Positions 18,470 through 50,979 of a stretch of 64,000 nucleotides of DNA are shown here, piece after piece. The translations under genes were made by a program, and so were the position numbers. This DNA is from a virus. The stretch lies in IMG/VR virus record IMGVR_UViG_3300037247_000924, one strand, 5' to 3'. A model generated the notes under the pieces. It had not been told where the DNA came from. It made no database searches and worked only from the letters and a program-made list of their open reading frames with translations. Position 1 is the stretch's first letter. Each line of letters starts with the position of its first letter.

Positions 18470-21400
18470 TTACTGGAACCAGTCTGGTTGTGGACGTTGT
18501 TCTTTCTTTCCAAACGGATCGGACTTAAAAAACGGATCGTCCAGTACTGTTCTTACGTTTTCTTGCTTGATCACTCTCTGTTTCCTTATCTGTGCTAAGT
18601 AATACATTAAAACGAGAAATGACATTACCCTGTCATAGTTCCCATCTTCAGTGTACGCGATCAATTCTTTCAAAAACGGAATTGACCTAATTTTCTGCAA
18701 ATTTAACAATAATTCATCATCTTCTCGTTTTTCTATCAACCAAGTTTTCACCATTTCTTCACCAAACTCCTTTAACCCAGTAGTCATGTGTATTCCTTTT
18801 TTTCTACTTACCTTAGAATCATCAATAACATCTTGGATGATCTCAACAGGTTGATCTAACAATAAATACGTGCAGTTCTGGGAGTCGAAATAGTCAAATA
18901 ATCCCTTCCTTTCATTTTCATAAAGAATCTGGCAATTATAATACAGGAGTAGTTTACGTACATTCTCGTAGTAAATTTTAGAAGTCTCTGGCCTGCCAGA
19001 ATACTCGGCAACAATCTTATGATTCACTCTATCATAGACGAAAGTAGATCCCAGTGATCCGGTACTGGACTTATCATGATCGTATGGATCCGCGCTGGCC
19101 GCGTACATTCCTCTTGGTGGCCTGCCAGACTCATCATGATACGGATGGTTGAAAATAACTATACACCCAGTAGCGTCCTGCCCAGCTCTCATTGGGAAAT
19201 CGATAATTGGTACCAGGTCCGTATTCTCCTTCCAGACAATATCGCCTAAATTATCCGTAACTAAGTCTCCAATAAAATCTGCATTCCTAATCCTCTCGTT
19301 CGATTCCAAATACCCCAGGTGTTGTTTTAGCTCAGCAACGGCAAAGATCATTCCCTCTGTTCGCAAGACAGCCTCGGAAGGACTGAATGGCTTTTCTGCC
19401 ACGTATCGAACCACTGCATTCCGATCCTTAGCATTATCAGCTATCAGCTTACGCTCCTTCATTTCACGCTCTATTGCAGCCTCGATATTAGAGTTCCCAT
19501 TCTCATCATAGTAGCCCTCCATATTTAGGTATTCAGGTCCGAAGTATCCACACTCCGTATCTCCTTTCCCGTCATCCCAGATGTTAGGAGTATGGTGGAT
19601 ATTATAGGCTTTGGGGTAATAGAACAGTTCTTCTAGTCCATCAAAGTTGCTTCCTTCAGTTCCGCCTGTATTATGGGTAATAATTCCATTGGCAATATAT
19701 GTGCTTGTCGTACCGGCTGTTAAATTATAAATATCCCTCATTCCAATCTCCTCAACACTAATTACTCTCTCTAATCTCAGCCCATGCACATTAGCAGATA
19801 TCCCCTCTTTCTTATCTCTATACATCTCCTTAAATGTATTTAGTCTTCTTTGTTTTTCTGCTGGAAATAATTTAATATTCTTCACGAATGCTAAAACGCT
19901 TCTTTTGTCAGCAATTTCAAATCTAAAATGGTCGTTTTTGTCTTTAGGATTTTTTTCACTCTTTTTTATCCTCTGAATAGCTCCATGAACACCTATTCTC
20001 TGAAGTAAAAATCTTATTTCATCTAATAAGGTAAAGGACATAGAGGTTATGCTTATCCTACCTCTTTTCTTTTCAACATATCCATCCGTGTCGAAAAGAC
20101 CACCCAGTAATTCACAAATACTTTTTTTTGAGTAAGAATGGATATTCCTAGGAAGAGTTTTTGATAGTTTAGTTTGACCATATATTCCTACCGCTCTTAA
20201 TTTAGGGCAGATTCCTCTAATTCGTGTCTCTCTGTAAATCTTGCCTGTTTTTGTTATGTACTGCTTCTCAATAACGGTGTCGTAATTGGAATCAATAGCA
20301 GTGTTTATCTCGCCTTCACAATTAGAAAGGATGGGGGTCTTATTAATCCCATAGCTACCATCTCCAATTAACCATCCCAAAAGCCTCGCATCAGGTAATT
20401 CCTTACGCCTGGATATGGGCACAACATCAATCACTGCTATTTGATCACTAGCCTTAATATTCTTAGCCTCAACAAACTCTGTTTTTTTTATGAATGGTCT
20501 ACGAATATTACCTTTTGGTTTTCTAGGCTGAGAACCATGCCAGAGTTTACTCCATAATATTGGATGATCTTCACTGCACTCCAGCACTCTTCCGGTATGG
20601 GTGGTTATTCGATAGCAAAGCTTTTTAGCTGGCGGGTTCCAGTGAGTTACTTCCTCTTTTGATATCCTGCCTTCTTCTTTATTATACCCCAATATTCCCT
20701 GCCGCGGCTTAAGGTCTTCTATTTTCACTAAGTCTCCTCTATTATTCCAGACCTTTGTTCCAGCACAAACACATCCGAATGCAACTTGTAATCCGAACGT
20801 AATTGGACCCTGCTCCATCGAACTTCTAGTAATTCCCCAGGCCGTTAATAGTTTCGGGAAAAGACCAGCCTCCTCGAACAGAATCAGTTTCCCACGTTTT
20901 CCTCTCGATCTATTTGGGTTATCTTTTAGGGAGACTCCTATAATTTCAGACTTATAGCCCTTCTCTATACTTTGGCCATCTTCTAGCTCTGTAAAACTAG
21001 CCTTTCTGCGCATCTCCTTGTTAGTAGAGCTTCTTTTTGTCCAGGCGGTATGTTCGTTTATAAAATCTATATTATCCCACGCCTTTGTCAATAATCCATC
21101 TGAGGTTAGGTGCTCTTTCTCAAATGCCATAGCATAAGACTTGGATCCTCGAATAAGAAAATAATTACGACACAGCATATTGGCTCCTTTGTACGAAAAT
21201 CCGCGCCCACGCGCCTTAAGAACCACTCCATGCTTCCCATTTTTTTCAGCATCTTCTAGGTAATTAAAATACTTATAATCCCCGTCCCATACTTTAGGGA
21301 ACAACATAGGCCTATCGCCCTGGACCCTTTCATCTTCCTTTATATCCTCTATTGCTTCTACAACAGGGATCTGGCAATAATTCAAATAAAAGTAGTAGTA

Positions 21401-21574
21401 TCCAGATATCTTATCAAATCCCAAATCATAGCCTTCTATAGATCTTCTTTTCTCCTCTTCCCAAAACTTCATATACCCACTGGAGGGTAAATCATTAAAG
21501 GGATGTTTAGTATAGACTCCATGCTCCTCGAAATGAGCAGCAGCCGGTCTAAATTCTTGTACCCTTTCTAGCAT
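18470..21574 (-). CDS. terL: Terminase large subunit containing an intein
   Basis: Walker A LKARGRGFSY, Walker B LILFEEAG, AFG|intein|TGG, nuclease domain SADPYDHD and NYDRVMS. Confidence 0.93.
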   Translation of the reverse strand: MLERVQEFRPAAAHFEEHGVYTKHPFNDLPSSGYMKFWEEEKRRSIEGYDLGFDKISGYYYFYLNYCQIPVVEAIEDIKEDERVQGDRPMLFPKVWDGDYKYFNYLEDAEKNGKHGVVLKARGRGFSYKGANMLCRNYFLIRGSKSYAMAFEKEHLTSDGLLTKAWDNIDFINEHTAWTKRSSTNKEMRRKASFTELEDGQSIEKGYKSEIIGVSLKDNPNRSRGKRGKLILFEEAGLFPKLLTAWGITRSSMEQGPITFGLQVAFGCVCAGTKVWNNRGDLVKIEDLKPRQGILGYNKEEGRISKEEVTHWNPPAKKLCYRITTHTGRVLECSEDHPILWSKLWHGSQPRKPKGNIRRPFIKKTEFVEAKNIKASDQIAVIDVVPISRRKELPDARLLGWLIGDGSYGINKTPILSNCEGEINTAIDSNYDTVIEKQYITKTGKIYRETRIRGICPKLRAVGIYGQTKLSKTLPRNIHSYSKKSICELLGGLFDTDGYVEKKRGRISITSMSFTLLDEIRFLLQRIGVHGAIQRIKKSEKNPKDKNDHFRFEIADKRSVLAFVKNIKLFPAEKQRRLNTFKEMYRDKKEGISANVHGLRLERVISVEEIGMRDIYNLTAGTTSTYIANGIITHNTGGTEGSNFDGLEELFYYPKAYNIHHTPNIWDDGKGDTECGYFGPEYLNMEGYYDENGNSNIEAAIEREMKERKLIADNAKDRNAVVRYVAEKPFSPSEAVLRTEGMIFAVAELKQHLGYLESNERIRNADFIGDLVTDNLGDIVWKENTDLVPIIDFPMRAGQDATGCIVIFNHPYHDESGRPPRGMYAASADPYDHDKSSTGSLGSTFVYDRVNHKIVAEYSGRPETSKIYYENVRKLLLYYNCQILYENERKGLFDYFDSQNCTYLLLDQPVEIIQDVIDDSKVSRKKGIHMTTGLKEFGEEMVKTWLIEKREDDELLLNLQKIRSIPFLKELIAYTEDGNYDRVMSFLVLMYYLAQIRKQRVIKQENVRTVLDDPFFKSDPFGKKEQRPQPDWFQ
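19670..20773 (-). mobile_element. Intein with LAGLIDADG homing endonuclease (368 aa)
   Basis: Starts CVCAGTKV, ends YIANGIITHN followed by T; blocks LLGWLIGDGS and LLGGLFDTDG. Confidence 0.92.
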
Positions 21575-21580
21575 AGTACT

Positions 21581-22108
21581 TTAGCTTTCAAATGCCCCGG
21601 CGCTTCCTCCGCCACGAATTCTGGTGTCACTCTGTAGTTCTTTTTTTACCTTCTCATGTAGGCTCTCAAGACTATCCATAATACCACTTGCGTCCTTTAG
21701 TCCTGATGTGACCTCTTTTAGCTTATATAAGGGCTTGCCGTTATCGGGATCATAGTTGACATTACTAAAGTAGTCAGTTGTAGCCTCAAGAGCCTCAATA
21801 GCGCTTTCCAGGAACCTCAACGCTGGGGTTGACTGCAGTATCCTGTACTTTTCTACTCCTGCCCTTAAAACAACACTAATCTGCCGTATGTCGAAATCTT
21901 TCCTTAACGTATCCTCTCGCTCTTCAATAAGATAGGATTGATATACGGAAGAATAGTCACACAGAAAATAGATGTATGATAAGTATTTAATAGCAAGTTC
22001 CTTTTTTGGAGAGGTATCATGTTTCCAAATGGCGGCAAATTCCGGTATTGAAAGTGCTGCAGGATTTATTGTGAGTTCCTTGTTACTGTCTAAGCTTAAT
22101 AGATTCAT
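21581..22108 (-). CDS. Conserved crAss-like protein upstream of TerL (possible TerS)
   Basis: F..IW..D.S..KE.A...L.YIYF..DY.S.Y motif and position. Confidence 0.5.
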   Translation of the reverse strand: MNLLSLDSNKELTINPAALSIPEFAAIWKHDTSPKKELAIKYLSYIYFLCDYSSVYQSYLIEEREDTLRKDFDIRQISVVLRAGVEKYRILQSTPALRFLESAIEALEATTDYFSNVNYDPDNGKPLYKLKEVTSGLKDASGIMDSLESLHEKVKKELQSDTRIRGGGSAGAFES

Positions 22109-22296
22109 GTACTGCTGATTACTTGGGGAGCATCGGGGACCCCGGTTATGGTCGAGCTTTCCTCTGAATAGGTAATGTCAAAACTGGGTTCATCTTCGCC
22201 TATATAAGATATTAGATAGCGTATCCTTGACTCAAGAATCCTTACTGTAGTGTAAAATTCCTCTTTTGTTACGTATTCGGTTTTTTTCTTGGTCAT
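22105..22296 (-). CDS. Hypothetical protein
   Basis: 63 aa; stop overlaps the next start codon. Confidence 0.45.
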   Translation of the reverse strand: MTKKKTEYVTKEEFYTTVRILESRIRYLISYIGEDEPSFDITYSEESSTITGVPDAPQVISST

Positions 22297-22297
22297 A

Positions 22298-22501
22298 CTA
22301 CTTCCATCTCTTTAATTCACAAATCACTTTAGGGGCCCTAGTTTTCATTGGTATCGGGCAATTACACTCCTTACAGATATTATACCAGTTAGAAGGGCAT
22401 GGAGCACACATGACAGCCCTTGATTTCGCCATCTGCTCTACCTTGGGATTCTTCCAAATTACGTTCTTCCAGCCGTCGTAGATGTCTTGTAACTTACCCA
22501 T
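22298..22501 (-). CDS. Small Cys-rich (Zn-binding) protein
   Basis: R..MC..CP.....CKECNC...KTR....C...RW. Confidence 0.6.
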   Translation of the reverse strand: MGKLQDIYDGWKNVIWKNPKVEQMAKSRAVMCAPCPSNWYNICKECNCPIPMKTRAPKVICELKRWK

Positions 22502-22578
22502 TTAACGACAATATAGAAATTGTGTTACTGTAAAATTAGGAATAGTGCGGGGGTAAACCTAAGAAAATACGGATTAAG

Positions 22579-22653
22579 TGGTTGCCCAACGTGGATTCGA
22601 ACCACGATTCACTCCTTCAAAGGGAGGTGTCCTGCCAGTTAGACGAAAGGGCA
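22579..22653 (-). tRNA. tRNA-Gln(UUG)
   Basis: Cloverleaf; loop CT-TTG-AA; encoded CCA. Confidence 0.92.
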
Positions 22654-22659
22654 ATATTG

Positions 22660-22733
22660 CTGCGAGTCTGAGACTCGAACTCAGGATCTTCTGCTTAACA
22701 GGCAGCTGCTGTAACCAACTCAGCTAACTCGCA
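22660..22733 (-). tRNA. tRNA-Asn(GUU)
   Basis: Cloverleaf; loop CT-GTT-AA. Confidence 0.92.
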
Positions 22734-22738
22734 TTTTG

Positions 22739-22808
22739 CACAGGAAGCAGGAGTTGAACCCACAAGTCACGAGTTTGGAATCCGCTTAGTACACCAATAC
22801 GTTCCTGC
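22739..22808 (-). tRNA. tRNA-Trp(CCA), short D arm
   Basis: Acceptor GCAGGAA/TTCCTGT; loop TT-CCA-AA; T-loop TTCAACT; weak anticodon stem. Confidence 0.75.
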
Positions 22809-22814
22809 GTATAG

Positions 22815-22888
22815 CGGTACGGGCTGGACTCGAACCAGCGGCCAGCAGATCTTCAATCTACCACTCTACGCAACTGAGTTACCGTACC
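22815..22888 (-). tRNA. tRNA-Phe(GAA)
   Basis: Cloverleaf; loop TT-GAA-GA. Confidence 0.9.
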
Positions 22889-22894
22889 TTATTG

Positions 22895-22968
22895 AGACCA
22901 GAACAGGGTTCGAACCTGCGTAAAGGGTTTTGCAGACCCCCACCTATAACCATCTCAGACATCTGGCC
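22895..22968 (-). tRNA. tRNA-Cys(GCA)
   Basis: Cloverleaf; loop CT-GCA-AA; U73. Confidence 0.92.
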
Positions 22969-22973
22969 TTGTG

Positions 22974-23047
22974 CGGTACCGATGGGATTTGAACCCACGA
23001 TCTCCTCCGTGACAGGGAGGCAACATACACCAACATGATGCGGCACC
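22974..23047 (-). tRNA. tRNA-Asp(GUC)
   Basis: Cloverleaf; CCTCC CT-GTC-AC GGAGG; G73. Confidence 0.9.
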
Positions 23048-23051
23048 ATAT

Positions 23052-23081
23052 AAAAAAAGCCCTTCGCTATTAACAAAGGGC
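23052..23081 (-). terminator. Attenuator terminator C (upstream of Asp-Cys-Phe-Trp-Asn-Gln)
   Basis: GCCCTTTG-TTAATAG-CGAAGGGC-TTTTTTT, ending 4 nt before tRNA-Asp. Confidence 0.88.
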
Positions 23082-23107
23082 CTCGACTATTCTTTAAAGT
23101 TAGCGCA

Positions 23108-23173
23108 TTAGCCCCCTGTATCTTGATTAAAATCAAAATCACAGTTAAACCAATTTTGCTGTACTCTTCTCAT
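23108..23173 (-). CDS. Leader peptide C, MRRVQQNWFNCDFDFNQDTGG
   Basis: ATG AGA AGA GTA CAG CAA AAT TGG TTT AAC TGT GAT TTT GAT TTT AAT CAA GAT ACA GGG GGC TAA; codons 5-18 use only the six amino acids of the downstream tRNAs. Confidence 0.9.
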   Translation of the reverse strand: MRRVQQNWFNCDFDFNQDTGG

Positions 23174-23183
23174 AATTTCTTAG

Positions 23184-23256
23184 TATCCCAGACCAGATTC
23201 GAACTGGCGACTTTACCTTGAAAGGGTAACGGCTTGACCAACTTGCCCACAGGGAC
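23184..23256 (-). tRNA. tRNA-Glu(UUC)
   Basis: Cloverleaf; TTACC CT-TTC-AA GGTAA. Confidence 0.9.
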
Positions 23257-23293
23257 AAGTCTCCTCAGCTTCAATATCTACCGTTGCTTTCAT
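23213..23293 (-). CDS. Putative leaderless peptide MKATVDIEAEET... reading into tRNA-Glu
   Basis: ATG 4 nt after TATATTTG; GAA GCT GAG GAG just before the tRNA 5' end; stop inside the anticodon arm. Confidence 0.45.
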   Translation of the reverse strand: MKATVDIEAEETCPCGQVGQAVTLSR

Positions 23294-23297
23294 CTTG

Positions 23298-23305
23298 CAA
23301 ATATA
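23298..23305 (-). promoter_or_regulatory. -7 promoter element TATATTTG (tRNA-Glu and operon C)
   Basis: Exact TAnnTTTG match. Confidence 0.75.
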
Positions 23306-23325
23306 CAATTCTTTTTTTAATAACG

Positions 23326-23399
23326 TGATTCCGGTGAGAGTCGAACTCACAACCCTCTGCTTAGAAGGCAGATGCTCTATCCAGTTGAGCTACGGAACC
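23326..23399 (-). tRNA. tRNA-Arg(UCU)
   Basis: TCTGC CT-TCT-AA GCAGA. Confidence 0.92.
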
Positions 23400-23402
23400 A
23401 TG

Positions 23403-23475
23403 TTCCCCTGGTGGGCCTCGAACCCACTACTTTCCCGTTAAAAGCGGGAAGCCCGTCCACATGAGCTTCAGAGGA
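23403..23475 (-). tRNA. tRNA-Lys(UUU)
   Basis: TCCCG CT-TTT-AA CGGGA. Confidence 0.9.
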
Positions 23476-23537
23476 ATATATAGGAATACCAGGACGTTAT
23501 CTACGCCTGATCACCTGTTTATATTTCCTCTTACTTC

Positions 23538-24215
23538 TCATGCTAATGTTTTTGTTCTTATGTAATCAATTCCTCCATAAACGTTTTGTACTAATTCGGT
23601 TGAGCACACATATAGAGTTCCTGTTCCATACGGGAGCTTTCCAATTCCTTTTCTCTGAGTATCCCTTCTTATTTTATTCTTTGAGCATAACAGTGTCCAT
23701 TTTTTGTTTTTAAGCTTCGGAAACTCTTTGATCCATCGTCTCCTTATTTGGTATTCCGACAACCCGTTTTCTCCATAATAACATACCCGTATTTTGCATG
23801 ATTTATTTTTTACATTCTCATCAACCCACTCCCCCACCACCTTAATCATCGGCAAGTCTGAGTTGGCGAAAGAAAATATATTCCTACCCTTGGAGCCCTC
23901 ACCCCAATAAAGAGCGCATATCAACCTAAAAGGCTCATCTGTTTTTGCCCTCTCAAAACCATTCTTTCTGTAGCCTAATCTTCTCTCTTGTGCTTTTGTT
24001 TTATTGATTCTAGACTGCACTAGGAGCTTATCTATACCTGCATTTAAGCGGTTATTTTCTAAAGTTCGCTTATGATCTTCTGTTAACTTTACATCCCGAA
24101 CCCATAAACTAACCGAGCTTTTTGACACTCTAAGTTTTTTAGCGATCTTAAACAGGCTTAATCCCAATCCACGAAGCCGCCTAGCCTCTTTTTGCTCATT
24201 TTCTTTTTTCTTCAT
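23538..24215 (-). CDS. HTH plus LAGLIDADG-like putative homing endonuclease inside the tRNA array
   Basis: N-terminal HTH (GLSLFKIAKKLRVSKSSVSLWVR); ALYWGEGSK, FANSD and YGTGTL motifs; between tRNA-Val and tRNA-Lys. Confidence 0.6.
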   Translation of the reverse strand: MKKKENEQKEARRLRGLGLSLFKIAKKLRVSKSSVSLWVRDVKLTEDHKRTLENNRLNAGIDKLLVQSRINKTKAQERRLGYRKNGFERAKTDEPFRLICALYWGEGSKGRNIFSFANSDLPMIKVVGEWVDENVKNKSCKIRVCYYGENGLSEYQIRRRWIKEFPKLKNKKWTLLCSKNKIRRDTQRKGIGKLPYGTGTLYVCSTELVQNVYGGIDYIRTKTLA

Positions 24216-24244
24216 CCGAACCTCTGTCTTATTAATATATAAGA

Positions 24245-24252
24245 CAAAGATA
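24245..24252 (-). promoter_or_regulatory. -7 promoter element TATCTTTG for the endonuclease-like gene
   Basis: TAnnTTTG immediately 3' of tRNA-Val. Confidence 0.6.
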
Positions 24253-24263
24253 CTAATTATTAT

Positions 24264-24340
24264 TGGTACTTGCTAAGAGATTCGAACTCCTGACCCTCTC
24301 GGTGTAAACGAGACGCTCTTAACCGCTGAGCTAAGCAAGC
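24264..24340 (-). tRNA. tRNA-Val(UAC)
   Basis: TCTCG TT-TAC-AC CGAGA; encoded CCA. Confidence 0.93.
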
Positions 24341-24346
24341 ATGTAG

Positions 24347-24422
24347 TGGATCTGAACGGACTTGAACCGATAACCTTCTGAGTGCAAAACAGACGCTCTA
24401 GCCAAATTGGAGCTACAAACCC
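24347..24422 (-). tRNA. tRNA-Ala(UGC)
   Basis: Loop TT-TGC-AC; G3:U70 identity pair. Confidence 0.92.
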
Positions 24423-24426
24423 ATTT

Positions 24427-24514
24427 TAATCATGCCTCCCTGTGGAGTATCTGCACAGGACTATGCCCGCTCACCACCCCGATGGATTTCACATTCTTCA
24501 GGGAGACATGATTA
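24427..24514 (-). ncRNA. Structured RNA of unknown function between tRNA-Ile2 and tRNA-Ala
   Basis: 16-bp closing stem TAATCATGTCTCCCTG / CAGGGAGGCATGATTA enclosing two small hairpins. Confidence 0.5.
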
Positions 24515-24520
24515 TCATAG

Positions 24521-24594
24521 TTGACCCTAAAGGAATTGAACCTTTAACCTTCCGGTTATGAGCCGGGCGCTCTGACCAATTGAGCTAAGGGTCA
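24521..24594 (-). tRNA. tRNA-Ile2(CAU), lysidine-type (elongator Met not excluded)
   Basis: CCCGG CT-CAT-AA CCGGA; acceptor TGACCCT resembles Ile2. Confidence 0.75.
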
Positions 24595-24597
24595 CTG

Positions 24598-24671
24598 AGC
24601 GAATAGTCGGGATCGAACCGACTCTATTTCTGCTTGGAAGGCAGACGCACCACCGTTTATGCGTTACTCGC
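24598..24671 (-). tRNA. tRNA-Gly(UCC)
   Basis: TCTGC CT-TCC-AA GCAGA; U73. Confidence 0.92.
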
Positions 24672-24677
24672 TTATTG

Positions 24678-24750
24678 TTGGCAAAATTGGATTTGAACCA
24701 ATGACCCCCGCCTTATCAGGACGGTGCTCTCACCGCTGAGCTATTCGCCA
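24678..24750 (-). tRNA. tRNA-Ile(GAU)
   Basis: CCGTC CT-GAT-AA GGCGG. Confidence 0.92.
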
Positions 24751-24755
24751 ATATG

Positions 24756-24829
24756 TAGCGGGACACGGATTCGAACCGTGGACCTGTAGGTTATGAGCCT
24801 ACCGAGCTGACCAACTGCTCCATCCCGCT
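24756..24829 (-). tRNA. tRNA-Met(CAU), initiator-like
   Basis: AGCGGGATGGAGCAG 5' end resembles fMet; loop CT-CAT-AA; 1:72 is paired (A-U). Confidence 0.85.
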
Positions 24830-24837
24830 ATATATTG

Positions 24838-24911
24838 AGCCGCATACAGGATTCGAACCTGTGACCGGTTGATTACAAATCAACAGCTCTGACCATCTGA
24901 GCTAACGCGGC
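24838..24911 (-). tRNA. tRNA-Thr(UGU)
   Basis: GTTGA TT-TGT-AA TCAAC. Confidence 0.92.
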
Positions 24912-24914
24912 ATT

Positions 24915-24946
24915 AAAAAACCCCAAGCAATTTCTCACTTGGGGTT
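24915..24946 (-). terminator. Attenuator terminator B (upstream of the Thr...Val/Lys/Arg block)
   Basis: CCCCAAG-TGAGAAATTG-CTTGGGG-TTTTTT, ending 3 nt before tRNA-Thr. Confidence 0.88.
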
Positions 24947-24967
24947 CCAGTATCGTAAATTGCTTCG

Positions 24968-25054
24968 TTAGGTTATACATACACCGGTGCCCCCTTGTGA
25001 CTTAATCACCGTGGCAGCCATTCTCGCTATCGTATTTCTCCTTATTGAAGTCAT
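24968..25054 (-). CDS. Leader peptide B, MTSIRRNTIARMAATVIKSQGGTGVCIT
   Basis: 28 codons, 23 of which encode T/M/I/G/A/V/K/R; Arg codons are all AGR; Ile is ATA x3 and ATT x1. Confidence 0.85.
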   Translation of the reverse strand: MTSIRRNTIARMAATVIKSQGGTGVCIT

Positions 25055-25073
25055 TTTGTTTTTATTAACAGTA

Positions 25074-25081
25074 CAAACGTA
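25074..25081 (-). promoter_or_regulatory. -7 promoter element TACGTTTG (operon B)
   Basis: TAnnTTTG followed by an A-rich 5' UTR and the leader ATG. Confidence 0.75.
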
Positions 25082-25114
25082 CAACCCTTGGATTTAATAT
25101 CCTAATTTATTTTG

Positions 25115-25187
25115 GGTGACACCGGGACTCGAACCCTGTTCTCCAGATTCACAGTCTGGCACTTTACGCATATAAGCTAGTGACACC
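25115..25187 (-). tRNA. tRNA-His(GUG)
   Basis: CCAGA CT-GTG-AA TCTGG; C73; acceptor/T-stem register ambiguous by 1 nt. Confidence 0.88.
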
Positions 25188-25193
25188 ATATAG

Positions 25194-25265
25194 TACCCCC
25201 GGCACGATTCGAACGCGCATTCCCTGGTCCGAAGCCAGGAGCTCTATCCGTTGAACTACGGAGGC
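25194..25265 (-). tRNA. tRNA-Arg(UCG)
   Basis: CCTGG CT-TCG-GA CCAGG. Confidence 0.9.
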
Positions 25266-25270
25266 ATTTG

Positions 25271-25355
25271 TACCGAGAGCGGGCCTCGAACCCGCAAGAT
25301 CGCAATGACCGTCAGGGCTTAAACCTGATGCGTTTACCTATTTCACCACCTCGGC
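25271..25355 (-). tRNA. tRNA-Leu(UAA)
   Basis: TCAGG TT-TAA-GC CCTGA; long variable arm. Confidence 0.92.
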
Positions 25356-25359
25356 ATAG

Positions 25360-25434
25360 TACCGGTGAAGGGAATCGAACCCCCAGAACTCCTGATCCTA
25401 AGTCAGGCGACTTTACCATTTTGCCCACACCGGC
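25360..25434 (-). tRNA. tRNA-Leu(UAG), short variable region
   Basis: CCTGA CT-TAG-GA TCAGG; variable region about 6 nt; 75 nt total. Confidence 0.85.
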
Positions 25435-25439
25435 ATTCG

Positions 25440-25509
25440 TGGGGTACCAGGATTCGAACCTTGGCGGTTAGGGGTTACAACCCTTCCGGCACAACCTACG
25501 CTGCACCCC
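25440..25509 (-). tRNA. Atypical tRNA-Tyr(GUA), 70 nt
   Basis: Acceptor GGGGTGC/GTACCCC; loop TT-GTA-AC; T-loop TTCGAAT; reduced D arm; no long variable arm. Confidence 0.6.
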
Positions 25510-25515
25510 ATCTAG

Positions 25516-25597
25516 CGGAAAACAGAGGCCACGATCCCCAATCCTTTCAGATCCACCTCTTTAGCAAAGAGAGCCTACCCAGGTAGGTTTATCTTCC
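25516..25597 (-). tRNA. tRNA-Ser(GCU)
   Basis: TCTCT TT-GCT-AA AGAGG; long variable arm; G73; non-canonical T-loop ATCGTGG. Confidence 0.85.
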
Positions 25598-25602
25598 GTA
25601 TG

Positions 25603-25691
25603 CGGAAAGCGGAGGACCCGACCCCCAGACAACTTAATGCCTTCTAGTTTTCAAGACTAGCCGCAGCTCCATTGCCACTGCTTCACCTTCC
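25603..25691 (-). tRNA. tRNA-Ser(UGA)
   Basis: CTAGT CT-TGA-AA ACTAG; long variable arm; G73; non-canonical T-loop. Confidence 0.85.
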
Positions 25692-25696
25692 GTTTG

Positions 25697-25769
25697 TCTG
25701 AGTGGAGAGACTTGAACTCCCGTCCTGAGCATCCCAAATGCCCCGCGCTACCAACTGTGCCACACCCAG
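25697..25769 (-). tRNA. tRNA-Pro(UGG)
   Basis: GGGCA TT-TGG-GA TGCTC; C1:G72. Confidence 0.92.
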
Positions 25770-25781
25770 ATATTATTCCAC

Positions 25782-25813
25782 AAAAAAAGCCCCGGAGGTT
25801 ATCCGAGGCTTTT
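25782..25813 (-). terminator. Attenuator terminator A (upstream of the Pro...His block)
   Basis: GCCTCGGA-TAACC-TCCGGGGC-TTTTTTT, ending 12 nt before tRNA-Pro. Confidence 0.9.
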
Positions 25814-25832
25814 CCTATATATGTCGTGAATC

Positions 25833-25901
25833 TTACATAGGCGTATCCCCCGGACTTGCGTTCGGCAGCGAATAGCGACTATGTAAGAGTTGTTGAATCA
25901 C
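25833..25901 (-). CDS. Leader peptide A, (M)IQQLLHSRYSLPNASPGDTPM
   Basis: GTG ATT CAA CAA CTC TTA CAT AGT CGC TAT TCG CTG CCG AAC GCA AGT CCG GGG GAT ACG CCT ATG TAA; GTG 4 nt after the -7 box (leaderless). Confidence 0.85.
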   Translation of the reverse strand: MIQQLLHSRYSLPNASPGDTPM

Positions 25902-25905
25902 GATG

Positions 25906-25913
25906 CAAATATA
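25906..25913 (-). promoter_or_regulatory. -7 promoter element TATATTTG (operon A)
   Basis: Exact TAnnTTTG match. Confidence 0.78.
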
Positions 25914-25927
25914 CTACTCTTTTTCGA

Positions 25928-26251
25928 TTATTTTAAAAACGCCTCTCTTTTTATTTTATCATAATCTACTCCCTTACAAATTTGTTTAGTCAAAAACCTA
26001 CAATAATCCGGATTAACTTTTTGTCTGTATCCAAGTAAATGCATAGAATTAGCTTTTCCCTTTAGTTTATGAGATTTAACCTTATAAAAAATCCCCCAAT
26101 AATCTTTTATTCTCTTTTTAAGCTTTCTGGATATTCTAGGATTCTCTCTAAGACAGTGTTTTGTTTTAGGTTCCGTAAAATGTTTTTCTAACTCTTCATA
26201 TAGAATAGCCTTCATTCTTCTTTGCCTAGCTCCTGTCTGGATTAATTGCAC
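25928..26251 (-). CDS. Hypothetical basic protein
   Basis: 107-aa ORF; start uncertain. Confidence 0.45.
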   Translation of the reverse strand: MQLIQTGARQRRMKAILYEELEKHFTEPKTKHCLRENPRISRKLKKRIKDYWGIFYKVKSHKLKGKANSMHLLGYRQKVNPDYCRFLTKQICKGVDYDKIKREAFLK

Positions 26252-26379
26252 AACTCGTACAGTCTTTACCTGAATGATGATCTACTGGACAGGGCCTATC
26301 TGTCAAGAGATCGCATTGCCTCTTACCGTCTTCCCAATAATAATGAAACATCCCTGATAATTCGGTTTCTGGCATCTTC

Positions 26380-26745
26380 TTAAAGTGTTTCAAAATAGAA
26401 TTTTACTTTAACTCCTGTTTCTTTGATAAGTCCGTAATCTTTTGCCATTCGATATGCACTTGAATCCCTCTGGAGCCGTTCACATTGTTTCTGAAGCTCT
26501 TCCCTGAATTTCTCAATGGTAAAAGTGTCCTTCCACCTATTGCATCTAGGGCAGCTAGGATTTGAGTTTTCTAAAGTATCAGCACCCTTTTTTAACTTAT
26601 ACTTTTCACATTCCTCTAGTGTCATGTTGTGCCAATGAGCTTCGATATGGTCTACATGCCAACCCTTCTGTAATTCACAACCACAGTAGGCGCACTTACC
26701 TCCGTACTTATCAAATATAAACTTTCTATCGCTTGCTTTACTCAT
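26380..26745 (-). CDS. HNH endonuclease
   Basis: CAYCG...WHVDHI...NPSCPRCNRWK. Confidence 0.88.
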   Translation of the reverse strand: MSKASDRKFIFDKYGGKCAYCGCELQKGWHVDHIEAHWHNMTLEECEKYKLKKGADTLENSNPSCPRCNRWKDTFTIEKFREELQKQCERLQRDSSAYRMAKDYGLIKETGVKVKFYFETL

Positions 26746-26790
26746 CCTCTAAGGTTGCTTTTTTGAGCGTATTATCCATATCTAACTCTT

Positions 26791-26994
26791 CTAATTTCTC
26801 TTTTTGATCGAATGATCATTGGCTAAAAGTCGTTTATATGCTTCTATACCCGCCTCTGTAAGTTCGTATTTCCCTTTAACCTCCCTGAACCATTCCGCAT
26901 TTATATTTGAACCAGAACCAATAAGAATACACTTAGTAGGCTTTCCTTTATCCCACCAACTAGCGTTCTTGAGTTTTTTAATATCGTAGTTCAT
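26791..26994 (-). CDS. Hypothetical protein
   Basis: 67-aa ORF. Confidence 0.4.
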   Translation of the reverse strand: MNYDIKKLKNASWWDKGKPTKCILIGSGSNINAEWFREVKGKYELTEAGIEAYKRLLANDHSIKKRN

Positions 26995-27069
26995 TATATT
27001 CTAATTACTAATTTGATAATTATTAGTAATGGTTAGTAATACGCCACAACCGTCATTAGTTTATACTCA

Positions 27070-27549
27070 CTATTTACCATGCTCCTCATCATGGCACTTC
27101 TCACAAAGAGTTATCATATCCTTTCCTTTCGCTTCCCATATATAACTATTCTTTCGATACTTAAGATGGTGAACATGCAGCATACTGTCTTTATCACCAC
27201 ACCTCCTGCAAGTAAATTTGTCTCTCTCTAGTATCTGTAGCCTTCTCCGCTGCCAATTCGGGTGCCTGTACTGCTCTTTCCATGTTAAGGGCTCCGCTAC
27301 AGGTATAAATCTAACCTTTTTGTTTTTAAACTTACTTCTTTTCTTTCTACACGGCTTCCCGGTTAAATGTTTATTCCTTAGGTCCAAAAACTCCTGCATA
27401 GCGTTCTCGGTATACTCCTTTCCGATCAATTGCTTTTTCCATCCTTTAGGAGTAAACTTAAAAACGCCTAACGCCCTGAATTGAGCATTAGACCATCCGC
27501 CATGACGACTCTTTGCGGCATCCATAATATCCTGGGTCATCACTACCAT
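27070..27549 (-). CDS. HNH endonuclease with extra N-terminal domain
   Basis: WQRRRLQILERDKFTCRRCG...LHVHH...TLCEKCHDEEH; N-terminal GGWSNAQ...PKGWKK. Confidence 0.85.
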   Translation of the reverse strand: MVVMTQDIMDAAKSRHGGWSNAQFRALGVFKFTPKGWKKQLIGKEYTENAMQEFLDLRNKHLTGKPCRKKRSKFKNKKVRFIPVAEPLTWKEQYRHPNWQRRRLQILERDKFTCRRCGDKDSMLHVHHLKYRKNSYIWEAKGKDMITLCEKCHDEEHGK

Positions 27550-27796
27550 ACCAACTCTTTCTCTGAAATCCCTTATTCAGCAGTTTAAAACCTGTTTAGT
27601 TCTACTATAATCTAATCATTTACTCCTAATCCTCTGTACGATTAGTGGAATAGGTCGTCGAATTTTCAGCTTAACCGTCCTCAGTTGTCGAGGTATTCCC
27701 AGGAAGGTTCCCACCTTTCCCTTCTTCAATCTTAGATAACCCTTTTGTTTCTACCTTCTTGCGGTACTTCGGTTGGGTTGTAAGAACCGATATTAG

Positions 27797-27875
27797 TGGA
27801 GAGTGAAGGACTCGAACCTCCGACCTGCTGTCTTAACCGTGCGCACCGCTGCTCTACCAACTGAGCTAACTCCCC
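27797..27875 (-). tRNA. tRNA-Ala-like RNA with 13-nt anticodon loop
   Basis: Acceptor GGGGAGT/ACTCTCC-A (G3:U70), canonical D and T arms, anticodon arm GCGGT-GCGCACGGTTAAG-ACAGC. Confidence 0.7.
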
Positions 27876-28075
27876 ATATGATAACCTGTTAATCCCTTAC
27901 AGAAGGATTAAAGTACAAAGGGTCGGCATAACTTTCAGCCTCCTTCCACCCTCGCGTGTACCTCTCCTATCAACTGCTGTAAAACTTATCTCAATACTGC
28001 TTTTTAAGAGCATCTATTAATATATTGAATCAAAGAGCAGGTTATCAATATTTAAAGAACAATGAGAAAGTATCG

Positions 28076-28126
28076 GACAAAAAGAATCCCGATGCAAACT
28101 AGAGCCAGCACATCGGGAAATTCTTT
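28076..28126. terminator. Long hairpin, bidirectional terminator-like
   Basis: AAAGAATCCCGATG...CATCGGGAAATTCTTT flanked by A and T tracts. Confidence 0.65.
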
Positions 28127-28246
28127 CACGGTATCAGGGGTATCCCTTCTACGTTATAATGTCATTCGAGAATTAGCTGGCTTAATAGTTATTTTCTCTG
28201 ACTACAAAGTAAAGCATTATATATTTAACATACAAGGGTAAATTAC

Positions 28247-28272
28247 AAAACCCCCTGAATAATCAGAGGGCT
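28247..28272 (-). terminator. Intrinsic terminator
   Basis: GCCCTCTGA-TTAT-TCAGGGGGT-TTTG. Confidence 0.7.
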
Positions 28273-28338
28273 TGCACAAATTTAACATTAGAGCTACTTC
28301 TTGCAGCACCCATCTACGGGTAATCAAATATACTGAAT

Positions 28339-28701
28339 TTAAAGCGGATCCAGCGGGTCACCAAAGATCTTTATACACTTTTCTGCCTCAGTCTTCTCTT
28401 CTGCTTGATCTGCTAGTTGATCTTTAAACATCTCCCTAGTGATTTGTTTCCGATCAGCCCAGGCTACTCTCCTACGCTGAGACAAGCAGAAGCTACCAAA
28501 TCCAGGAATCCACACAAGCCTCTTTTCTATAGCCATTTGACTAGCAGTAAAGTTGAGTGTCTTCCTAATTATGGACCGAACCACAGTCACGGAGAGCCCC
28601 TGTTCTGCGGCGATCTTACTCACAATCTTTTCAAGTCCTGGTTCAAAAGGTTCAGGTCGGGACCTTGTTACAGGGAAGTGATTGACTACAAGCTTAGCCA
28701 T
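28339..28701 (-). CDS. HU/IHF-like DNA-binding protein
   Basis: IVSKIAAEQGLS...VWIPGFGSFCL, HU family pattern. Confidence 0.75.
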   Translation of the reverse strand: MAKLVVNHFPVTRSRPEPFEPGLEKIVSKIAAEQGLSVTVVRSIIRKTLNFTASQMAIEKRLVWIPGFGSFCLSQRRRVAWADRKQITREMFKDQLADQAEEKTEAEKCIKIFGDPLDPL

Positions 28702-48441: not shown

Positions 48442-50979
48442 ATGAATCCCGGAAAATTATCAACTAGCTTCTCTATCAAGATGTCTGAGGAGTATTTTCC
48501 CACAGGCTTTCAGAAGGGTGATAAAATACAGATAGGTGGGTATAAAGGTACACTTACAGTATTAGAGGTGAAAGATACTAATGAGATCGAGGTTGGATAT
48601 CCAACTATATGGTGGAGAATTAAATATTACGTGTCAATTAAGTGGAGTAAACTACAAATAGCAATATCATGGATAAAGGAAAAGTTAAAAAGGAATTAAG
48701 CCCTGCTGAGAGGGAGTTCTTTGAAGAGTATGGTGCAGGAATGAATGATGCACAGATAAGGTTTGTCTGTATGGGTTTTGCAGCAGTTGAAAAGATGAAG
48801 AATCCGGACCGAACCCTACTGGATAAGGTTTTAGAACAAGTCGAGGATATGCCGCTAAATAATGACGGCAAAACGTTTGAATGGAAGCTGCAAGGAAAAG
48901 GTAAAAGCGAAACCGTATCCCTGATAGACGAGCTAAAGCCTCTACAGGAAGAAAACAATAAGCTGATGAATAAATTCCAAAAAGAGGAACTAGAGAAATA
49001 CTACATTCCTGAAATATCAGAGTTCCATGTGGGATTTGAGTACGAATGGTCAGAAGACGGTAGCAAGATATGGATAGAGGAAACAGCTGATCAAGACGAT
49101 GTTCTTTTAGCATATTCTAGTTATGAGCATAATGATGAGTACAATGAAGAATATAGAGTAAAGTATCTGGACAGGGAGGATATTAAGAGCGAGGGTTGGA
49201 TATGGGAAGACTCCTTACTAGGCCTAAAGTCTCCCCAGAACTATAGCTTTGGAGATTATTGGATGATCTGTAATTATGATAAAACAGTAAAGATTAAGAA
49301 AAGAGGAGGTGAAACCTTGTTCTGTGGAACAATCAAAAATAAATCAAAATTTAAAGGGATACTGCAACAAGTAGGTATCCTGCAAAGATGAACGGAAGCA
49401 CTAAGCGCCAAGCCAGCCGGGTCGTTCAAAAAGCTCGTCAAGGAAGTGGCAGTACCGGTTTGCTGGAGTCGAGGGTACTTTCCAAATACTAGAAATATGA
49501 CAGACCTAAGAATAGAGGTATACCCAGTCATTAACACTAACCTGCCAGAGGCTACTAAGCTAATGAATAGAAAAAGTGATCAATTTGAATCAAGAGTGGT
49601 GGAGATTATTGTCGGGGATCGGGAAAGCCTGGTGATCGTAGAATTAAAAGGATCCTACCCTTTCATTACCGAACAATGGGAAAAAGTAATTAATGCAACA
49701 AATTAGAAAATTATGAGCAAACCAGAAATGAAAACCTATGAGATTCCGGGTAAGTACGGAATAAACGATATTAAATCATTATGCGCATGGTGGGGTGGAT
49801 GGGGCCAAGGCGATATGCATGGCGATAGTGATGTAAATGGTGACCATCGCTTTATGAGCTTCCAATTCGGGGAAGATATTGATCAAACGGACCAGAAGGC
49901 TATTGACGCTGAGATTAAGAGAAGAGAGCAGCAGAACATTGAGTATATAGAGGACCTTAAGGAGCTCGGTGCTTATGGAACTGAATATATTACTTCCTTT
50001 ACATTAGCTCATAATCCGTTGCTTGATGATCCGAAACGCGTAAAACCAGATACAAAATCATATCGCTATACAATACTAGACCTCAGTAAGGTTCCGGAAA
50101 AGAAACCGCTCGTATTTAAAGAGTATGAGGTATGGATGGGTAATTGTGGTAGTATGGGGCAAGGAGATCATGGCCCAACCGAACCAAGAATGCTTGGAAA
50201 AGTCAAAGCTACATCATTCAATATAGCTTGTGTGATTTATGAGCATCAAAGTGCCATTGATCATTTAAACCTCAGAATGAACCGTGGAGATACTCATATA
50301 GAGGACATCCATTTCGGGGGCTGGTGCTATACACCCAAAGATAATAGGAATTCCTGGACAGGTAAGTATTACGAATCAGAGCAAGAGGCTCTTAAATCAT
50401 TCAAATAAAAATATGACAGATCAAGAAATACTAAGATCAGCTTTAGAGAAGGCTGCAGAAAATGGAAGTGAGATAGCGAAAGGTTATGTCGAACGAATAA
50501 CCGCCCCTGGTACCCAAGACTGGAATTCAGAATTTGTATGTAGGGCCGCTTGCCTAACAAAAGACTTCGCAATTGCTTTTTGGGGAGAGGATCCTGTAGG
50601 TCTACGTACGTATGAGATATCCGATCCTATAGTAGAAGGGGAACCAGTAACCTTTGTTGGTACCTACGTCTTGGAGGATAATCCAGTTCAATACCTTGAG
50701 CAGTTTTTGAAGAGGGACTAATCTATGATACAAATAAATAAGAAAACCTGGACGAATCCATTCCAAGAAGGCGGTATCCCATTTACCGAAACACGGATAA
50801 GGGCATCAATGACTCATAAAGGAAAGGAGTTTTTTGAAGATTATGTACTCCTGAGCACTAGTGACGTTACAGAGCCGCAAGCTATTGAGTTTCTTAAAAC
50901 AAAATTAAGGGAAAGTGTCAGGAGTTATAATATTCATGCTGCAGCTCATCGTACAGATCAAATACTTTCTGCCAATTAG
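48442..50979 (+). other. Cluster of hypothetical ORFs
   Basis: 48442..48699, 48669..49391, 49713..50408, 50413..50721, 50725..50979; converges with the - strand block at about 50950. Confidence 0.55.

Follow-up and report, generated by a model that had tools for sequence, protein, structure and literature searches.

A probable leader-peptide attenuator in front of a tRNA block in a crAss-like phage

Introduction

The enterobacterial leaders thrL, with its Thr and Ile codons, and ilvL of the ilvGMEDA operon, with its Ile, Leu and Val codons, are multivalent leader-peptide attenuators, and in E. coli the pheM leader controls the pheST operon, which codes for phenylalanyl-tRNA synthetase. Here, we describe an element of comparable layout on the minus strand of a viral tRNA array, at positions 24,915 to 25,081 of a 64,000-nucleotide stretch of DNA (hereafter, the window) from the IMG/VR virus record IMGVR_UViG_3300037247_000924. 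The element, attenuator B, is made up of a leader open reading frame (ORF), an antiterminator and an intrinsic terminator, and stands in front of a block of tRNA genes, block B, with which it forms unit B. We think it likely that attenuator B, one of three such elements in the array, controls block B by ribosome-mediated transcription attenuation at a leader peptide; the block would probably be transcribed only when ribosomes read its codons slowly, in the manner of the trp operon.

Unit B shares with thrL and ilvL a short leader ORF, a run of codons for several amino acids and a terminator just downstream, as well as an antiterminator that has a strand in common with the terminator; as for those leaders, a ribosome stalled within the run is predicted to bring about read-through, and one that has arrived at the stop codon is predicted to cause termination. 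The cargo of unit B, however, consists of tRNAs and not of biosynthetic enzymes, so that the adaptor itself would be replenished, and the signal may be the amount of tRNA rather than the supply of amino acid. Moreover, the leader of unit B samples eight to nine tRNAs, mostly once or twice each, whereas thrL and ilvL repeat one or two codons; there is no sequence similarity between these leaders and that of unit B, and unit B is carried by a virus. With pheM, unit B would have in common the leader-peptide attenuation of a component of the translation apparatus, but pheM precedes a synthetase gene and uses Phe codons only, whereas unit B combines tRNA genes with a mixed set of codons. A third comparison is with the T-box (RF00230), in which the choice between terminator and antiterminator likewise reports on the tRNA pool and controls translation-related genes. 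The T-box RNA, however, binds uncharged tRNA directly, by means of a specifier codon together with the T-box sequence, and needs no ribosome, whereas the codons of unit B are carried by an ORF and unit B has no T-box match (see below).

Searches of the full-text literature returned no account of tRNA genes under leader-peptide attenuation and, to our knowledge, the regulation of phage tRNA genes is largely unknown. What these genes are for, and at what times phages use them, has itself been debated for decades, the two views being codon compensation and escape from tRNA-targeting defence (PMC10264068).

Results and Discussion

A leader ORF rich in codons read by the downstream tRNAs

The tRNA array (22579..25769; assembled from ARAGORN, Rfam and by-eye additions) holds 24 tRNAs that read all 61 sense codons, provided that one of the tRNAs with a CAU anticodon is Ile2. 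Like all the units, RNA elements and genes of the window located below, it lies on the minus strand. The 61 sense codons were sorted by the array block whose tRNA reads each of them, which gave class A, with 24 codons (Pro, Ser, Tyr, Leu, Arg-CGN and His), class B, with 26 codons (Thr, Ile, Met, Gly, Ala, Val, Lys, Arg-AGR and Glu) and class C, with 11 codons (Asp, Cys, Phe, Trp, Asn and Gln).

The spacer between tRNA-His and tRNA-Thr, at the head of block B, is 202 nt long and contains a single ORF of at least 15 codons. This ORF, leader B (24968..25054), extends over 28 codons and a stop, from an ATG at 25054 to a TAA at 24970..24968; upstream of its start the sequence is A-rich and devoid of a Shine-Dalgarno sequence, in which it resembles 32 of 35 real phage genes. 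An earlier, sequence-only reading of the window had assigned 23 of the 28 leader residues to the amino acids of the block, and our codon sorting confirms this: at the isoacceptor level, 23 codons belong to class B, two to class A and three to class C. The codons singled out in that reading are also as described, namely three ATA (codons 4, 9 and 27), one ATT, AGG/AGA/AGA and AAG; its qualification of ATA as rare was wrong, as this codon accounts for 37% of the Ile codons of the phage. Codons 8 to 18 (25001..25033; Thr Ile Ala Arg Met Ala Ala Thr Val Ile Lys) form an unbroken run of 11, all of them read by block B, to which we refer as the regulatory run. In total, leader B samples nine of the ten tRNAs located between terminator B and terminator C (see below), the exception being tRNA-Glu.

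Class B already makes up 53% of the codons in 42 long phage ORFs, and the composition of the phage genes was taken as the background for binomial tests. Against this composition, the 23 of 28 codons gave p = 1.4e-3 when the block was taken to include Glu; p = 9.2e-5 was obtained with Glu left out, in view of the separate promoter-like box of tRNA-Glu (TATATTTG; see below) and of the complete absence of Glu codons from leader B, and p = 6.6e-4 with only the seven tRNAs that precede a 225-aa gene lying inside the block. When the spacer was subjected to dinucleotide shuffling, 152 of 20000 shuffles had a class-B run of 11 codons or more (p about 0.008), and among 936 short ORFs of the window four have such a run. 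Taken alone, the codon evidence of leader B is moderately significant.

A terminator and a competing antiterminator

Twenty nucleotides beyond the leader stop codon begins intrinsic terminator B (24915..24948), a 14-bp stem with a 5' arm at 24948..24935 and a 3' arm at 24930..24917, a GAAA loop and a U6 tract (24920..24915), with an energy of -19.0 kcal/mol. Between the U-tract and tRNA-Thr, which starts at 24911, there are only 3 nt (24914..24912); no promoter fits there, and transcription of block B must therefore pass the terminator.

Three segments upstream of the terminator loop can pair in alternative ways. Region 2 (24976..25000; UCAC-AA-GGGG-GCA-CCGGUGU-A-UGUA), which coincides with leader codons 19-27, is the 5' strand of an antiterminator, and region 3 (24935..24957) is its 3' strand, the last 14 nt of which (24948..24935) are at the same time the 5' arm of the terminator. 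The sequence-only reading had paired GGGG-GCA-CCGG with CUGG-AA-CCCC, a proposal whose coordinates are right to within 1 nt and which turns out to be the core of a longer helix, extended by UCAC/GUGA and by GUGU-A-UGUA/UACG-AUAC. The same reading was to be abandoned if no alternative fold came close to the terminator in energy; the 2:3 helix, at -21.4 kcal/mol, is in fact comparable to it. When the upstream sequence was shuffled 3000 times, only four shuffles gave a helix as stable as this one and engaging the terminator arm to the same extent (z = -3.6). Region 1 (25001..25019) is able to form a local hairpin of -11.7 kcal/mol with the first part of region 2, and is a candidate for an anti-antiterminator, or for a pause hairpin, when the leader is untranslated; this role is putative, because the 1:2 hairpin is weaker than the 2:3 helix.

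The effect of a translating ribosome was modelled by folding the RNA from its putative start to the terminator loop, that is, before the 3' arm is made, while the ribosome footprint was masked codon by codon, with three footprint sizes. With the A site anywhere from codon 2 to codons 16-18, the CCCC core of the terminator was sequestered with a probability of about 1.0 in silico, for all three footprints; once the A site moved past codons 16-18, the footprint covered region 2, the 2:3 helix was lost and sequestration dropped to about 0.5. The end of the codon run, at codon 18, coincides with the end of this protection by the antiterminator. With the ribosome modelled at the leader stop codon, the footprint takes in codons 23-28 and a further 12 nt or so downstream, and the terminator is left free. 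The ORF, with its codon bias and its match to the tRNAs, the terminator and the alternative, antiterminator helix are direct observations and stand confirmed, and the geometry of the ribosome is that of the in silico model.

A cmscan search of 22000..28500, with E up to 1, returned tRNA-type matches only, and no Thr, Leu, His, Trp or Phe leader and no T-box. Attenuator B is thus an element that would work like the known attenuators and is not a sequence member of their families. Two other identities for the spacer were ruled out: that of a decayed tRNA, for which there was no tRNA-like match at relaxed thresholds, and that of a T-box or other known RNA family, for which there was no Rfam match.

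Two sibling units with other codon classes

The array contains two more units in which an ORF, a G-rich mimic of the terminator 3' arm, a terminator and a tRNA block follow one another: unit A (25782..25913), before tRNA-Pro, and unit C (23052..23173), before tRNA-Asp. The order of the parts and the relation of codons to cargo are the same as in unit B, whereas the codon classes differ and sequence homology between the units is not detectable; unit B alone has a cargo interrupted by a protein gene and by a 97-nt structured RNA. In leader A, a run of nine codons covers all eight of the tRNAs of its block (16 of 20000 shuffles), and in leader C 14 codons in a row stand for exactly the six amino acids of its block, namely Asp, Cys, Phe, Trp, Asn and Gln (0 of 20000 shuffles), the next-best short ORF of the window having a run of eight. 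When the three leaders were tabulated against the three codon classes, the chi-square was 43.1 (p 1e-8). A G5 motif that mimics the terminator 3' arm is found near the end of the ORF in all three units. In silico, the antiterminator of unit A is kept up to codons 12-14, the run ending at codon 13, and that of unit C up to codons 14-16, the run ending at codon 18. On the strength of this modelling we propose that units A and C would work like unit B, for the other two codon classes.

Promoter boxes and the presumed host

The octamer TACGTTTG (25074..25081, minus strand) is a candidate -7 promoter box of the Bacteroidota type, TAnnTTTG, recognized by pattern match only; as a promoter, it would start the transcript about 12-14 nt ahead of the leader ATG. 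The assignment of a promoter to 25081..25074 holds in so far as TACGTTTG fits the TAnnTTTG pattern, but the window shows no enrichment of this pattern, with 44 sites where about 60 would be expected, so that the promoter is unproven. The box of leader B is a variant of the exact form, TATATTTG, which precedes leader A and tRNA-Glu. The 64-kb window has six exact TATATTTG sites, and five of these are located in the interval 23.3-28.4 kb, a region of tRNAs and small RNAs (pattern matches at 23298..23305, 25906..25913, 26712..26719, 26902..26909 and 28325..28332), which suggests that a single strong promoter type may serve this region. Transcripts could also come from upstream: no terminator is predicted after tRNA-His, and leader B may therefore also be reached by read-through from block A, an alternative source of its transcript. 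Another TAnnTTTG box, TATCTTTG (24252..24245, minus strand), is located ahead of the 225-aa gene and may allow tRNA-Lys and tRNA-Arg(UCU) to be transcribed independently of leader B. tRNA-Glu (23257..23324), the only block-B tRNA that is absent from leader B, has a TATATTTG box of its own and is preceded by a short ATG-started frame with Glu codons, which runs into the tRNA; this tRNA has no terminator in front.

The phage is crAss-like, with the Crass_capsid and CrAss_Ring families represented among its capsid, ring and portal neighbours. A Shine-Dalgarno sequence was found for only 3 of 35 phage genes, and upstream regions are A-rich; together with the TAnnTTTG boxes, these signals point to a host that is presumably a member of the Bacteroidota.

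Relatives, control loci and phage phiCbK

The search for relatives was anchored on a neighbouring 175-aa gene and on the large terminase (TerL), relatives of which reach 69% identity. The array is absent from eight IMG/VR loci, from 39 metagenome loci and from the Logan contigs of the nearest TerL relatives; one complete relative of 95 kb has no tRNAs at all, and one fragment has tRNAs for Met and Thr only, without a terminator. Megablast and blastn of the whole array against GenBank phages gave isolated matches to single tRNAs only, and exact tRNA words had no matches in IMG/VR. As a negative control we used 72 randomly drawn, unrelated viral loci that share the tRNA-Thr anticodon arm and hold 273 tRNAs. 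Among them there were 12 cases of a terminator before a tRNA, with no matching ORF in any (p 0.045-0.77); hence, the statistic is not inflated, and the design is not universal.

A similar arrangement is found in the cultured Caulobacter phage phiCbK (JX100813, 47000..53000), in which rho-independent terminators are annotated directly before tRNA blocks. There, gp083, annotated as a hypothetical protein of 45 aa and lying with its terminator at 49540..49769, precedes this annotated terminator and nine tRNAs in the order Pro/Pro/Lys/Lys/Leu x3/Ser x2, and 23 of its 45 residues are P, K, L or S, precisely the amino acids of these tRNAs (p 2.8e-5). The gp083 unit is thus similar to unit B in the order of its parts and in its codon-to-cargo logic, and phiCbK is a tractable system for the attenuation idea.

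A model for attenuator B and its alternatives

From the arrangement of these parts we infer that leader B is translated, that the hairpin terminates the host RNA polymerase and that stalling causes read-through. With plentiful charged tRNAs, a ribosome would follow the polymerase over the 28-codon leader, reach the stop codon and cover region 2; the 3:4 terminator, in which region 4 is the 3' arm, would then form, and transcription would end 3 nt ahead of tRNA-Thr. If, on the other hand, one of the tRNAs needed at codons 8-18 (Thr, Ile-ATA, Ile-ATT, Ala, Arg-AGR, Met, Val or Lys) became limiting, the ribosome would stall there, region 2 would remain free and the 2:3 antiterminator would sequester the 5' arm of the terminator. 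The polymerase would then read through into the genes for the Thr, CAU, Ile, Gly, Met, Ala and Val tRNAs and would probably continue, as there is no terminator between, to the 225-aa gene and to tRNA-Lys and tRNA-Arg(UCU). The net effect would be a feedback of decoding speed on tRNA supply.

Several observations weigh against this model. The truncated RNA, when untranslated, folds into the antiterminator (-27.9 kcal/mol) in preference to the 1:2 hairpin (-11.7 kcal/mol), so an untranslated leader may, on this folding, read through rather than terminate. The Gly codons of leader B sit within region 2, where stalling would favour termination; tRNA-Gly may therefore escape sensing, that is, be one to which leader B is insensitive. 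Leader B is also the weakest of the three leaders, because its class is already so frequent in real genes, and promoter B is a candidate only. No relative with the array was found in GenBank phages, IMG/VR, JGI metagenomes or Logan contigs. Two of the three candidate leaders of phiCbK are weak (p 0.075 and 0.44). In a search of sequencing runs the phage was present in a single one, a DNA run from a marine-sediment metagenome that is probably its source, and in no RNA run. Finally, the coupling of transcription and translation in the presumed Bacteroidota host is assumed.

Some of these points, among them the unproven promoter and the moderate codon statistics of leader B alone (p about 1e-3 to 8e-3), would be expected if hairpin B were a plain, partly leaky terminator that ends the Pro-to-His block, with an untranslated ORF, a codon match due to chance and a block B that is expressed by constitutive read-through or from far upstream. 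The missing terminator after tRNA-His fits in here as well, since it makes hairpin B the first stop signal past block A. A leaky terminator, however, leaves unexplained why a helix of -21.4 kcal/mol, matched in so few shuffles (4 of 3000), should compete with it, why the codon run should end where a stalled ribosome ceases to protect that helix, and why A and C should repeat the design, each with a codon set of its own (joint p about 1e-8); furthermore, a terminator placed 3 nt before the tRNAs, with no promoter between, would be a poor design for constitutive expression. We consider this explanation unlikely.

Still less probable, in our view, is an element that acts as RNA only, either as a processing or stability hairpin or as a switch that senses a signal other than the ribosome, such as T-box-like tRNA binding or a protein antiterminator. 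No Rfam family, T-box or other, was matched at E up to 1, and a pure RNA element provides no reason for an open frame, an A-rich start and a match between codons and tRNAs in three units; this has to be set against the folding of the spacer, which is better than that of shuffles (z -3.1), the need of long tRNA precursors for processing signals and the presence of the structured 97-nt RNA within the same block. That the ORF codes for a functional 28-residue micro-protein with its own terminator, located before the tRNAs by coincidence, is very improbable: the frame is open, its start is plausible and phages encode many tiny proteins, but the peptide is without homologues and shows neither a hydrophobic helix nor any other feature that stands out, the three peptides of the array have in common only a composition that tracks their own downstream tRNAs, and the ORF overlaps both strands of the regulatory helices.

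Leader-peptide attenuation thus being our preferred explanation for unit B, the model predicts that read-through at 24920..24915 goes up when the decoding of Thr, Ile, Ala or Val is slowed. If it is true, the phage gauges decoding speed directly and tops up exactly those adaptors that are short, a feedback logic that is known for amino-acid and synthetase genes and that we did not find described for tRNA genes. Unit B would bring this idea to a crAss-like phage with expression signals of the Bacteroidota style. Leader codons would offer a means to infer, from sequence alone, which tRNAs share one regulatory unit, and such leaders could serve as compact multi-codon sensors in synthetic biology. 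A more far-reaching idea, which we put forward tentatively and hold to be doubtful, is that the three attenuators form a modular sensor of decoding stress, with blocks that are induced independently of one another, and that such sensors are widespread and convergent with units like those of phiCbK. Each block would be switched on when ribosomes slow down at the codons of that block, and the tRNA set would stay silent for as long as host tRNAs suffice. Expression would follow once host tRNAs have been depleted or cleaved, for example through anticodon nucleases or other defences directed against tRNAs, and also when the codon demand of the phage exceeds supply. The phage tRNA set would then be an inducible counter-measure, under an undescribed mode of tRNA-gene regulation.

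The 225-aa gene inside block B

The proximal part of the gated block (24264..24911; ARAGORN, Rfam) has the order Thr(UGU), a CAU tRNA at 24755..24829 (Met or Ile2), Ile(GAU), Gly(UCC), Met(CAU), the 97-nt RNA, Ala(UGC) and Val(UAC); by eye, neither of the two CAU tRNAs has initiator features. The distal tRNAs, Lys(UUU) and Arg(UCU) (23325..23475; ARAGORN), are separated from tRNA-Val by the 225-aa gene (23538..24215). The positions of the tRNAs agree with the earlier suggestion that the AAG and AGG/AGA/AGA codons of leader B match Lys(UUU) and Arg(UCU), both beyond this gene, and no terminator is predicted between tRNA-Val and these two tRNAs; the Lys and Arg-AGR codons of the leader are therefore consistent with a single unit.

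The 225-aa protein is predicted to have an N-terminal helix-turn-helix (HTH) and a C-terminal LAGLIDADG-like domain, the former with a weak match in Pfam. With the AF2 model (pLDDT 95.7), the best match of an exhaustive structural comparison was I-DmoI (Z 7.0, root-mean-square deviation 2.2 over 79 residues), at a score in what is the grey zone of the tool (Z below 8), and six further LAGLIDADG entries matched with Z 4.7-6.4; a Foldseek search of the model against the PDB returned nothing at E <1e-3. The earlier description of the protein as endonuclease-like has this middling fold match behind it, and no nuclease match was found in Pfam or PHROG. The protein has 990 homologues, many of them on contigs of about 1 kb and some labelled transposase-like, and the motif Y-W-x-E-G is invariant across 40 of its homologues. 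An SD-like GAGG (SD, Shine-Dalgarno) precedes its ATG, unlike the situation in 32 of 35 phage genes. A homologue with 38% identity (L017:6001-6660) adjoins a tRNA-Val in an unrelated viral record of 259 kb, the 50 tRNAs of which are scattered and show no leader pattern. That the gene is a mobile LAGLIDADG-type gene inserted into an older operon, as the sequence-only reading suggested, is plausible in view of the HTH, the LAGLIDADG-like fold and the atypical ribosome-binding site, but unproven; the family may be one of mobile genes associated with tRNA arrays, or of WhiA-like regulators.

Other features of the array and its surroundings

In its default run, ARAGORN detected 21 tRNAs in the array. 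The other three were missed both by this run and by Rfam with E up to 1: Tyr(GUA), at 25439..25510, was recovered by relaxed ARAGORN (-ps), and Ser(GCU), at 25511..25601, and Trp(CCA), at 22734..22813, were found by eye.

The 97-nt structured RNA (24423..24519) lies between tRNA-Met and tRNA-Ala of block B. It has a 16-bp closing stem and an energy of -38.9 kcal/mol (z -4.7 relative to shuffles), is not a tRNA and has no Rfam match. Theta (HDV-like) ribozymes have been reported directly 3' of tRNA-Met in Bacteroidota phages (PMC10879173); the 97-nt RNA is likewise found directly 3' of tRNA-Met, a likeness in position.

The large terminase gene (18470..21574) carries a LAGLIDADG intein, and the closest relatives that lack the intein share 62-69% identity with it over the extein. 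Outside the array, a tRNA-like gene at 27796..27875 scores 49.9 bits with Rfam and was assigned no anticodon by ARAGORN; when introns were allowed, it was identified as Leu(UAA), the anticodon loop of which contains an insert of 8 nt.

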